Assembly: GCA_001781035.1 (NCBI GenBank)
Contig: MFKK01000037.1
Location: 1-57,984, forward strand
Origin: Candidatus Jorgensenbacteria bacterium RIFCSPLOWO2_01_FULL_45_25b
GTDB taxonomy: Bacteria; Patescibacteriota; Minisyncoccia; UBA6257; GWB1-50-10
Length of the DNA: 57,984 nucleotides
Reading direction: 5' to 3'
The position numbers were made by a program, and so were the translations under genes. Within the stretch, counting starts at the first letter, position 1. Each line of letters begins with the position of its first letter. The notes beneath the pieces were generated by a model. The model worked only from the letters and a program-made list of their open reading frames with translations. It did no database searches and was not told the DNA's origin. Of the stretch, positions 19,873 through 43,730 are shown piece after piece.

Positions 19873-19935
19873 TTTTGTTTTTCTTAATATTTTTATACGT
19901 TGACTTTTGGAAGCATCTCTCTCATTATTTTGTGA

Positions 19936-20234
19936 CGGGCTGTAGCCCGTTAGAGGCGCTCATTTCCATGTTTTATGTTTATGTGTTACAAAGCATTAAG
20001 GACGGTCAATGGTATACTGGTTATGCCAGTGATTTGAAGCGAAGAATCAAAGAACATAATTTAGGGCGGAATTTTTCGACTAAACACAGAATACCGTTTT
20101 GTCTCATTTATTATGAAGCTTGCTTGTCTGAAAAGGACGCAAAGACTCGTGAGAAATATTTGAAATCTGGAATGGGTAAAAGATATTTGAAGAATAGAAT
20201 GAGGTATTTTTTGAGCACCTCTAACGGGCTGTAG
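19936..20234 (+). mobile_element. GIY-YIG mini-cassette with terminal inverted repeats, inserted at the tRNA-Pro 5' end
   Basis: The 10-nt sequence cgggctgtag is present at 19936-19945 and 20225-20234. There is a 17/18-bp inverted repeat between 19944-19961 and 20213-20230. Confidence 0.45.
19968..20234 (+). CDS. GIY-YIG nuclease family protein (COG2827-like)
   Basis: FYVYVLQSIKDGQWYTGYASDLKRRIKEHN...KDAKTREKYLKSGMGK. The stop TAG lies inside tRNA-Pro. Confidence 0.8.
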   Translation: MFYVYVLQSIKDGQWYTGYASDLKRRIKEHNLGRNFSTKHRIPFCLIYYEACLSEKDAKTREKYLKSGMGKRYLKNRMRYFLSTSNGL

Positions 20235-20298
20235 TATACCGGTAGTACGTCTGCTTTGGGAGCAGATAGACCGGGTTCGATTCCCGGCAGCCCGACCA
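20225..20298 (+). tRNA. tRNA-Pro (anticodon TGG), CCA encoded
   Basis: Acceptor CGGGCTG/CAGCCCG, anticodon stem TCTGC/GCAGA, loop TTTGGGA, T arm CCGGG-TTCGATT-CCCGG, then ACCA. Confidence 0.85.
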
Positions 20299-42628: not shown

Positions 42629-43730
42629 GGTTCAGATACATATGAGACACTAGGTTTGTAAAGTAATGATGTTTCGCGTCGGCATTCGACCTTGTTCCAA
42701 TTTCGCCAGATATTCTTTTGGGGTGAGATAGCTTAACGCTTCGTGCGGTCTCACGTTGTTCCAAACATCTTGCCATACTCGTATTCTCTCGCGCATAACA
42801 GGGAGGAGCATGGAAATGTTCCCTTGCCGGTAGAATTCTCTCTCATCTGCCCCGTGAGAGATTTCAACGTACGTATTCTGTTTCGGATGTCTGGGGTATG
42901 TGAAGAAGTGAGACAGATTGAGTTCCCGACACCTCTTTTCAAACTCCTTCTGAAACGGAGCTCCATTGTCTGTCTGAACAGCCCGAATCGGAAAAGAGAA
43001 CCCCTAGAGACACTCTTCAAGAAACAAGGCTCCATTTCTTGACGACTCGGAGGCATACACCCGAAGAACTCTTGTTTTTGAAAGCACGTCAATGGCGGTG
43101 AATTGATAGAGCTTCTTTCCTCCGGGAAGCATGATGTGTTTCGTATCCATCTGTACCATATCACCAGGTGAAGATATCCTCATTCCATGCGGGAACCTTG
43201 CTCTTGGATGGAGAGCCGCTCTTCTTCGTTTCTCTGATATCTTCTTTGCGATCATACCGCGACGTTTCAAAATTCTTCCTATGGTGCTTGCGGAAACCAT
43301 CACTCCTTCTCGTTTCAGAAGGACATGGAGCTTGTGCTTTGACCACGCAGGATGCTCTCTGCGCAGGGAAACGATGCGTGCCGCCACTTCAGGCGGAGTT
43401 GTCGGTTTGCGGAGACGCTTCGGTCTTCGCGACTCCTCATTCAGTCCCAGAAGTCCGCGCGTGCGATATCGTTCAAACCATCGGTGCATCGTTGCGCGTC
43501 CGATGCCAAAATGACGGGCAGTGAGAGCGGTGTTTTTTCCATGAGCTCTGTGCCAGTCGAGAATGTTGATCCTGTATCTTGCTTCTTTCGTCAACCTTTC
43601 CCCAAGAAGGGCAGAACGCGCGATGGATGTCGCTCCGGGGAAGACTGTTCCGTATATGGTCATATGACGACCACTGTATCTTCCTTTCATCTTTTTTGAG
43701 AAGCGCTATGTGTATCATATGTTATGAACC
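42629..43730 (-). mobile_element. IS481/IS3-superfamily-like insertion sequence
   Basis: Terminal inverted repeats ggttcagatacatatgagacac and gtgtatcatatgttatgaacc (about 19 of 22 matched) bracket a DDE transposase. Confidence 0.75.
42650..43690 (-). pseudogene. DDE (rve) transposase interrupted by a single in-frame TAG at 43004-43006
   Basis: ...FLEECL*GFSFPIRAVQTDNGAPFQKEF...NNVRPHEALSYLTPKEY... The same frame runs on both sides of the stop, for 347 codons in total. Confidence 0.75.

Follow-up and report, generated by a model that had tools for sequence, protein, structure and literature searches.

The closest described system to the one reported here is Ssn, a group of small single-domain GIY-YIG proteins that bind hairpin repeats flanking their own genes and cut the adjoining single-stranded DNA (ssDNA) (Chenal et al., Nat Commun 2025, PMC11893778). 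Its authors remark that the repeat-gene-repeat arrangement looks like an insertion sequence (IS), and the paper makes no mention of genomes of the candidate phyla radiation (CPR), of a link to tRNA, or of data on mobility. Here we describe a locus in a 57,984-nucleotide (nt) stretch of DNA ("the window"; contig MFKK01000037.1) from Candidatus Jorgensenbacteria bacterium RIFCSPLOWO2_01_FULL_45_25b, in which a GIY-YIG nuclease gene enclosed by an inverted repeat sits at the 5' end of a tRNA-Pro gene. The genome (0.80 Mb, 38 contigs) is of the CPR/Patescibacteria type, and the names of the nearest public relatives of the cassette agree with this. The two systems share a single-domain GIY-YIG protein of ~90 amino acids (aa; 88 here), a gene lying between hairpin-forming repeats, and further repeats that are scattered in the genome and co-occur with the gene (24 arm cores here). 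They differ in that the arms here pair across the gene, leaving the open reading frame (ORF) in the loop, whereas Ssn has two local hairpins, and in that the units here are placed at start codons or at the 5' end of tRNA-Pro, with flanking direct repeats and gene-less derivatives.

Other known systems resemble the locus in part. GIY-YIG homing endonucleases (T4 SegB, in a tRNA cluster [PMC2330249], and I-TevI) share the catalytic domain, the selfish gene, the association with tRNA genes, and the occupation of the same site in distant genomes. However, they are proteins of 200 to 250 aa with separate DNA-binding domains, whereas the cassette protein has 88 aa and no second domain; they cleave empty alleles in double-stranded DNA, and homologous repair then spreads them at a single locus; and they are without inverted-repeat ends, gene-less derivatives, or multilocus copies. 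The IS200/IS605 and REP/RAYT elements are likewise very small, with hairpin ends that are handled single-stranded, a strict orientation, and scattered nonautonomous repeats (REP/BIME). In contrast to the cassette, whose only gene encodes a hydrolytic GIY-YIG nuclease, they use a Y1 HUH transposase that rejoins DNA through a covalent intermediate, and they have neither a long-range terminal inverted repeat nor a target duplication. GIY-YIG ORFs have also been reported in nonintron insertions of CPR rRNA genes (Tsurumaki et al., J Bacteriol 2024, PMC11270868). These insertions and rRNA intervening sequences resemble the locus in their CPR hosts and in having small GIY-YIG ORFs within insertions of stable-RNA genes. 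They belong to neither the group I nor the group II introns and lie at the tips or bases of stem-loops; inverted-repeat arms, gene-less copies, and tRNA or start-codon sites are not described in that paper. A full-text literature search returned no description of GIY-YIG mini-cassettes wrapped in inverted repeats, of gene-less derivatives, or of placement at start codons or tRNA 5' ends. What is known already is a nuclease with its cognate hairpin repeats; for the family described below, mobility is well supported and the mechanism of movement is unproven.

The features of the locus are as follows (window coordinates).

19900 to 19928, + strand: candidate sigma-70-like promoter (TTGACT, 17 nt, CATTAT), a consensus match only; transcription would start ~7 nt downstream, at ~19935, the first base of the left repeat copy
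19935 to 19945, + strand: left copy of the direct repeat ACGGGCTGTAG, identical to nt 1 to 10 of tRNA-Pro plus the preceding A
Left repeat copy joined with 19944 to 19950, + strand: local palindrome ACGGGCT-GT-AGCCCGT
19944 to 19962, + strand: 5' arm of the inverted repeat, AGCCCGTTAGAGGCGCTCA, with the core CCCGTTAGAG at 19946 to 19955 conserved across phyla
19968 to 20234, + strand: GIY-YIG nuclease ORF, 88 codons, with residues Y5, Y16, R26, H30, and E62 present
20212 to 20230, + strand: 3' arm of the inverted repeat, TGAGCACCTCTAACGGGCT, the last 6 nt of which are nt 1 to 6 of tRNA-Pro
20224 to 20234, + strand: right copy of the direct repeat
20225 to 20298, + strand: tRNA-Pro(UGG), by ARAGORN and Rfam

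The locus had first been outlined from the sequence alone, and most of that original prediction stood. ARAGORN placed tRNA-Pro(tgg) where it had been proposed, and the Rfam tRNA model agreed (20225 to 20295, 63.6 bits). The tRNA gene is intact, and no second tRNA-Pro(UGG) gene was found in the genome. The GIY-YIG ORF was also confirmed, with its TAG stop (20232 to 20234) coinciding with nt 8 to 10 of the tRNA. An inverted repeat had been described as pairing at 17 of 18 positions; the repeat is real but extends over 19 nt, of which 18 are paired (95% complementary), and encloses the ORF. Similarly, the direct repeat flanking the unit exists, but at 11 nt and not the 10 nt proposed. The promoter-like TTGACT-N17-CATTAT is present 9 nt to the left of the coordinates first given (19909 to 19937); it is a weak match (9 of 12 consensus positions), and three such sites were found in a 900-nt region versus 1.2 expected. 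At three sister loci discussed below (L126, L142, and L149), -10-like hexamers could be seen by eye 6 to 8 nt before the left repeat copy. Deletion of 19946 to 20234 would leave promoter plus tRNA, as had been claimed. The sole Shine-Dalgarno-like stretch ahead of the ORF, AGAGG, lies within the 5' arm.

The ORF product matches the Pfam GIY-YIG family (PF01541; E = 1.5e-14; 54.5 bits versus a cutoff of 22.6). The domain covers residues 1 to 68 and a helix runs to the C terminus, making this a single-domain protein. No NCBIfam model scored over its cutoff; TIGR01453, of the homing endonuclease type, reached 20.9 bits versus a cutoff of 56. Residues Y5, Y16, G18, R26, H30, and E62 are invariant in 46 sequences, so that the window's copy of the nuclease looks functional; they include the two Tyr, the Arg, the His, and the Glu of the catalytic type. 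An AlphaFold2 (AF2) model based on the 46 sequences had a predicted local distance difference test (pLDDT) score of 93.3 and has the beta-beta-alpha-beta-alpha fold of GIY-YIG nucleases. The folds nearest to it were UPF0213, then the catalytic domain of Slx1, and then I-TevI, and the nearest solved structures by sequence were the UPF0213 proteins BH0048 (PDB 1ZG2, E = 5.6e-10) and EF2693 (1YWL). UPF0213 and Slx1, the best matches by sequence and fold, agree with the cassette protein in their catalytic-type residues. Slx1 cleaves branched DNA in a structure-specific manner, as would suit a substrate folded into a hairpin or cruciform, but it differs in having an extra RING domain and in needing Slx4; UPF0213 differs in having no known function or repeat partner.

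The ends of the cassette are repeated elsewhere in the same genome. The 10-nt arm core (CCCGTTAGAG/CTCTAACGGG) occurs 24 times in 0.8 Mb, versus ~1.5 expected and none for a reversed-pattern control; the full 19-nt arm has no further occurrence in the genome at ≤2 mismatches. A second full-length cassette, 67% identical to the first, lies on contig C19 (G000:C19:11815-12089). It has the same arms (CCCCGTTAGAGACA ... TGTCTCTAACGGGG) and no adjoining tRNA; therefore, the arms belong to the cassette and not to the tRNA. Its single in-frame TGA means that it is probably decaying. The genome also contains gene-less units with cassette ends, either single or in tandem with 6-nt spacers. These include units of ~78 bp on C8 and C21, other short ones on C32 and C13, and a bare hairpin of 33 bp on C15. 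For the family at large, the gene-less cargo between the arms is about 10, 60, or 100 nt. The junction of the tandem arrays reads CTCTAACGGG-GCTCAC-CCCGTTAGAG, a 10-6-10 layout.

Two of these sites have further peculiarities. The stop codon of the C19 cassette (locus L002, G000:C19:10336-13587) overlaps, as GTGA, the start of a 451-aa ORF that begins VILTFHGGAKSVTGANYLLE and is metallo-beta-lactamase/RNase J-like. The 78-bp gene-less units (G000:C8:34943-35104, C8:38122-38199, and C21:24008-24222) lie inside the leader peptides of type IV pilin-like genes, directly at the G/FTLIE prepilin cleavage motif, single or two to three in tandem. They are in frame and free of stops, a unit plus its 6-nt repeat making 84 bp, or 28 codons, and the insert would be removed with the leader.

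We then compared 61 genomes of the same family and order. GIY-YIG homologs were found in 48 of them, with a maximum of 13 in one 0.7-Mb genome, and even within one bacterial family the gene is patchy (28 of 36 genomes, 0 to 13 copies). All 15 relatives with ≥5 copies of the motif carry the gene, and all 13 gene-free relatives have ≤2; this association of arms and gene is supportive only, being inflated by relatedness among the 61 genomes. In most of the relatives' copies that were fetched, the ORF lies within the inverted repeat, with a few nt between the 5' arm and the start codon and with the 3' arm abutting or overlapping the stop codon. The inner arm sequence varies between copies yet stays complementary. 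Because the 3' arm CTCTAACGGG is read in different frames (S-N-G in the window versus L-T-G in relatives), selection acts at the level of the nucleotide sequence rather than the peptide. At least 8 genera have a conserved gene-less unit of 117 to 120 bp that shares these ends, with four copies each in genomes G023 and G011.

The strongest evidence for movement comes from pairs of nearly identical copies. In one relative (G018), cassettes on two different contigs match at 99.65% identity over precisely the 284 bp that the inverted repeat bounds, from ATCCCGTTAGAG (ATCCCG) to CTCTAACGGGATGA (right end CGGGATGA), while their flanks are unrelated. Another (G055) has a 287-bp pair that is 98.6% identical and has different arms. 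Many relatives' copies are located at contig ends, as expected of high-identity repeats. From these comparisons, past mobility of the cassette family is well supported. An inserted cassette of a mobile kind had been proposed at the outset, together with a search for other copies of its ends and gene; the 99.65% pair, the second cassette and the gene-less units in the same genome, the uninterrupted tRNA-Pro genes of relatives, the cassette-free syntenic locus in G004, and the recurrence of the same register at tRNA-Pro in other phyla (all described below or above) favor that proposal.

The family extends well beyond these genomes. A search with a 7-sequence alignment against a collection of species-representative genomes gave at least 579 related loci, the best 80 of which are 58 to 74% identical to the window's protein. 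The hosts of these 80 are Parcubacteria, Saccharibacteria, and other CPR phyla and, beyond the CPR, metagenome-assembled genomes (MAGs) of Omnitrophota, Planctomycetota, Desulfobacterota, Nitrospirota, Clostridia, Balneolaceae, and Gammaproteobacteria. The inverted repeat is present in 60 of 81 cross-phylum copies, and the sequence of the arm core, CCCGTTAGA(G/A), is preserved across the whole set. A chance coincidence at the window's locus was rejected, since the cassette layout recurs in relatives and across phyla. We consider it probable that 19944 to 20230 represents one member of a widespread family of miniature, selfish GIY-YIG cassettes with arms CCCGTTAGAG ... CTCTAACGGG. It is likely, too, that the cassette nucleases are UPF0213/Slx1-like proteins of about 85 to 90 aa and that the gene-less units relate to the cassettes as miniature inverted-repeat transposable elements (MITEs) do to a full-length element.

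The units have marked preferences for where they lie. In 19 of 52 relatives' copies, the cassette's TGA stop and the start codon of a same-strand host ORF of ≥85 aa share bases (as ATGA or GTGA); the N termini of these host ORFs resemble Fmt, Tgt, PilC, Pgk, and others. In several further copies the host start is ≤22 nt away. The left flank copies the start region, giving ATGAAT-unit-ATGAAn. The gene-less units of 117 to 120 bp also lie on host starts, in constant orientation, the left ATG having decayed to ATA in two of them. These placements show that the units habitually lie precisely between the expression signals of a host gene and the gene itself, which is left intact.

The other recurrent site is the 5' end of tRNA genes. 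In four of the 32 relatives' copies fetched first, the overlap with a tRNA is exactly 10 nt long and places the stop on nt 8 to 10 of that tRNA (tRNA-Pro, -Asn, -Met, and -Phe). A tRNA gene is within 150 nt of 8 of 82 cross-phylum copies, and in 6 of the 8 it is tRNA-Pro. Loci L126 (Parcubacteria), L142, and L149 (both Saccharibacteria) have the same geometry as the window, the last 6 nt of the 3' arm being nt 1 to 6 of tRNA-Pro, and the arm ends covary with the particular tRNA-Pro (CGGGCT/AGCCCG versus CGGGCC/GGCCCG). Three further loci (L132, L120, and L173) have a gene-less unit joined to tRNA-Pro in this register and, immediately upstream, a GIY-YIG gene; L051 has a scar consisting of a partial tRNA-Pro copy plus CCCCGTTAGAA before an intact tRNA-Pro. 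Altogether, a cassette or gene-less unit joined to tRNA-Pro in this register is carried by seven genomes besides that of the window. Bacterial tRNA-Pro starts with C1, followed by GGG. The tRNA-Pro genes here start with CGGG(C/G), as does the arm terminus, and the units sit on their first ~8 nt; this common CGGG is probably why tRNA-Pro is hit. The protein tree (86 columns) did not resolve whether the tRNA-Pro-associated copies are one lineage.

Several other arrangements of cassettes and tRNA genes were seen. Between two tRNA-Met genes of the window's genome lies a degraded GIY-YIG gene of another subfamily (L003, G000:C11:5471-8581); an intact relative in another genome (L031, G016:C24) is likewise flanked by tRNA-Met genes on both sides and shares 10 nt with the second, the stop codon falling on tRNA nt 8 to 10. 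Two 344-bp copies in one genome (L032 and L072, at G034:C18 and G034:C80) are 98% identical and consist of a CCTGCCGGCAGG hairpin, the GIY-YIG ORF, and the whole of tRNA-Phe, ending at CCA. L072 also has an upstream copy of tRNA-Phe nt 1 to 20. The tRNA itself seems to be part of what is duplicated in this subfamily. In L047, L060, and L065 (genomes G005, G023, and G022), the first 8 nt of tRNA-Pro, CGGGC(C/T)GT, are repeated ~75 to 80 nt upstream of tRNA-Pro(GGG/CGG), with a conserved hairpin-like segment, gcttgcRtcccgg, between the copies.

Uninterrupted sites were found in relatives and not in the source species. Among the relatives, 28 other tRNA-Pro genes are uninterrupted, two of them with an identical first 20 nt. 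The syntenic locus in G004 (uppS, tRNA-Pro, glutaredoxin, next gene) is free of the cassette, and no GIY-YIG homolog was found anywhere in that genome. In the source species, all five public contigs with the locus, recovered by exact-protein look-ups, have the cassette in essentially identical form.

Three of the loci compared here call for comment in their own right. One public contig (L035; European Nucleotide Archive [ENA] ERZ28564339, scaffold_70623) is from a near-identical strain and diverges within the 3' acceptor strand of tRNA-Pro (AG to TC, 20289 to 20290); past the tRNA it has an IS200-like Y1 transposase gene on the opposite strand, where the window has glutaredoxin. We ruled out that L035 represents a different neighborhood: it is the same locus, and its nominal identity of 96.6% is due to an N-gap. 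The first 23 nt of L039 (ENA ERZ27254846, k141_971752) are an Illumina adapter, CCCTACACGACGCTCTTCCGATCT, joined to the middle of the GIY-YIG gene, an assembly artifact. In G004 a complete tRNA-Pro is nested between the 5' and 3' halves of another tRNA-Pro(UGG), at the anticodon loop (L063, G004:C3:20036-23107), and is enclosed by the inverted repeat GGTCGGACGCATAGT/ACTATGCGAACCGACC plus an extra hairpin.

The flanking repeats do not behave as a simple target duplication. Direct repeats of 6 nt lie just outside the core: CTGTAG/CTGTAG in the window, GTTTAC/GTTTAC on C8, and ATGAAT/ATGAAn in most relatives. The length is usually 5 to 7 nt but also 11, 13, or 17, and the longer duplications arise because the left flank reproduces the outer portion of the 3' arm as well. 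Owing to the repeat, the downstream tRNA-Pro in the window is made whole, and a second copy of its 5' end remains just past the promoter-like site. At the sister tRNA-Pro loci the left copy reads (C)TAACGGGC..., with an arm-like TAACGGG, and TAA precedes position +1 in only 1 of 28 native leaders. Because the lengths vary and the left copies extend into arm sequence, a target duplication of fixed length, including the 10-bp one first proposed, was rejected. Two readings are compatible with this pattern: either the element favors insertion sites similar to its right-end junction (arm end plus 6 nt), or the left hairpin belongs to the element. A classical DDE IS or MITE was also considered and rejected: inverted repeats are present, but the flanking repeats range from 5 to 17 nt in length and in many cases share one sequence. 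Genes matching rve and DDE_Tnp_1 are sporadic in the genomes examined. In the window itself, an rve (integrase core) match at 42884 to 43171 (- strand), in a 351-codon frame with one in-frame TAG, is probably a broken IS transposase.

How the cassettes might move can be outlined from these features. The cassette would be transcribed from the tRNA promoter as a ~290-nt leader, from which RNase P would release the tRNA. In the transcript, the 19-bp stem would hide the ribosome-binding stretch of the ORF and compete for the 5' strand of the tRNA, confining nuclease synthesis to a short cotranscriptional window. In DNA, the arms would fold into a hairpin or cruciform that the nuclease would recognize and nick, by analogy to Ssn on ssDNA hairpins and Slx1 on branched DNA; Ssn is the closest precedent. 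The unit would then be copied into sites sharing 6 to 12 nt with the right-end junction, and host replication and repair would complete the process. If so, the cassettes would form an undescribed class of autonomous transposon, whose sole protein is an ~88-residue structure-specific nuclease of the GIY-YIG type that reads its own arm hairpin. At ~285 bp, this would be the smallest self-contained mobile element known. It would insert through short homology at gene 5' ends (start codons and nt 1 to 8 of tRNA-Pro), borrow the host's promoter and ribosome-binding site, leave the gene intact, and also mobilize the gene-less units. We consider this possible but would not call it probable, and the same holds for targeting of tRNA genes driven by the nuclease itself.

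Several results weigh against it, or against parts of it. GIY-YIG enzymes hydrolyze DNA and cannot rejoin strands; an autonomous mechanism would therefore also need host functions. Most of these genomes have Y1/HUH transposase homologs and one Xer-type recombinase, which could act in trans. The SRM consensus of the Ssn-associated hairpins, HGTCWYN(0-2)YYVSBRHN(0-5)WNVSBRGN(0-2)RNCYNB, does not fit these arms: it has 2 matches genome-wide, neither near either cassette, versus 0 to 6 for controls. The flanking repeat, with its variable length and often the same sequence (ATGAA), is unlike a classical staggered-cut duplication, and none of the five public contigs of the source species is an empty site. 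Mismatches within the arms (G.T, 21; A.C, 24; other, 55) have no strand or wobble bias and so do not speak for a selected RNA stem, nor for either of the DNA strands in particular. Finally, the copies in odd hosts may partly be mis-binned CPR contigs, so that the cross-phylum spread may in part reflect MAG mis-binning.

The alternative that survives best is that another enzyme moves the units bounded by inverted repeats in trans, the GIY-YIG gene being cargo or having another job, such as Ssn-like restriction of incoming ssDNA. The mover could be the single Xer-type tyrosine recombinase of the host, with the arm-6 nt-arm palindrome as its substrate in the manner of IMEX elements and integron attC sites, or a Y1/HUH enzyme (RAYT or IS200-like) acting on the hairpins. 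The 10-6-10 junction of the tandem arrays does resemble a tyrosine-recombinase core with a 6-bp overlap, and overlap-directed recombination would predict both that the flanking repeats are 6 nt long and that the units keep one orientation with respect to the asymmetric spacer ATGAAT. The left half-site at the tRNA-Pro sites resembles the arm end (TAACGGG), an Xer-like gene was found once in every genome checked, and Y1_Tnp homologs were found in four of five genomes checked (none inside the cassette); the inability of GIY-YIG nucleases to ligate points the same way. However, the arms co-occur with the GIY-YIG gene over the 61 genomes, which a universal Xer cannot explain, and Y1_Tnp was not found in G055 (96% complete), which nonetheless has the 98.6% cassette pair. 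In addition, the arm core is conserved alongside the protein across phyla, as expected if the protein reads the core. We regard movement in trans as somewhat doubtful, and the Xer and Y1/HUH versions taken together have the same doubtful standing.

Predicted RNA folding bears on a different alternative, that the inverted repeat acts mainly in RNA. The minimum free energy (MFE) predicted for the transcript from the candidate promoter was -119.9 kcal/mol (z = -5.6), with the 19-bp stem formed. In the MFE fold, the upstream CGGGCUG pairs with the 3' acceptor strand of the tRNA, and the whole ORF is looped out between tRNA nt 8 and 9. A canonical tRNA using the downstream 5' strand was ~11 kcal/mol worse, in a model that ignores tertiary structure, proteins, and translating ribosomes; the predicted fold thus agrees with the competition between the long stem and the tRNA 5' strand that had been suggested from the sequence. 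Because this is the only tRNA-Pro(UGG) gene and the same arrangement is present in five assemblies, working tRNA must be produced. The simplest route would be cleavage by RNase P at 20224/20225 once the stem has been opened or cut. Such a cut would remove the stop codon of the ORF, and the stem would hide its sole Shine-Dalgarno-like stretch; both would keep nuclease synthesis low. Rfam found no family besides tRNA at E ≤ 1 on this strand. A group I, group II, or archaeal-type tRNA intron or ribozyme was rejected: only 24 nt of the unit are noncoding, there is no Rfam hit, and the downstream tRNA is complete.

If the repeat acted mainly in RNA, either looping the insert out or serving as a processing stem of the RNase III type, the tRNA-Pro cassette would be an old, fixed, and immobile leader. 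The strong long-range stem (z = -5.6), the coverage of the ORF's only Shine-Dalgarno-like stretch by the 5' arm, and the identical locus in five independent assemblies are in accord with this, as is the finding that the units are always co-oriented within host transcription units, at start codons and in the cleaved pilin leader. But G.U mismatches are not in excess over A.C, the arms are near-perfect with a core conserved in sequence beyond complementarity, and the near-identical copies at new loci and the gene-less copies with the same ends would go unexplained. Moreover, the looped-out fold leaves two extra nt and a 290-nt arm between tRNA nt 8 and 9, which is unlikely to be a working tRNA. 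A primary role in RNA is therefore unlikely. Very improbable is that there was no mobility and that a vertically inherited small nuclease gene gained palindromes by local template-switch (fold-back) copying, with the likeness to a duplication as a by-product: the left-end palindrome does vary in length (stems of 7 to 10 bp) and is an inverted copy of the arm start, but the 99.65% pair in unrelated flanks, the gene-less units with the same ends in many genera, the arm core common to different phyla, and the patchiness of the gene within one family all contradict it.

The reading we prefer remains that of a family of miniature selfish GIY-YIG cassettes. If the nuclease moves its own cassette, the family would push down the minimum size known for autonomous mobile elements, and a GIY-YIG-based mechanism would join the short list of bacterial DNA transposition routes. 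The pairs of protein and arm are also candidate sequence- or structure-specific DNA-cutting tools, as has been proposed for Ssn. Even if another enzyme moves the cassettes, the family explains many of the mini-genes annotated as "GIY-YIG nuclease family protein" and the hairpin repeats in CPR and other uncultured bacteria. Whatever the mover, the cassettes have a strategy of landing exactly at the 5' ends of genes so that the host gene survives, and they give rise to unusual precursors of an essential tRNA, with a 290-nt protein-coding leader whose stop lies inside the tRNA. Such precursors bear on how tRNAs are processed in organisms with minimal RNA-processing machinery.

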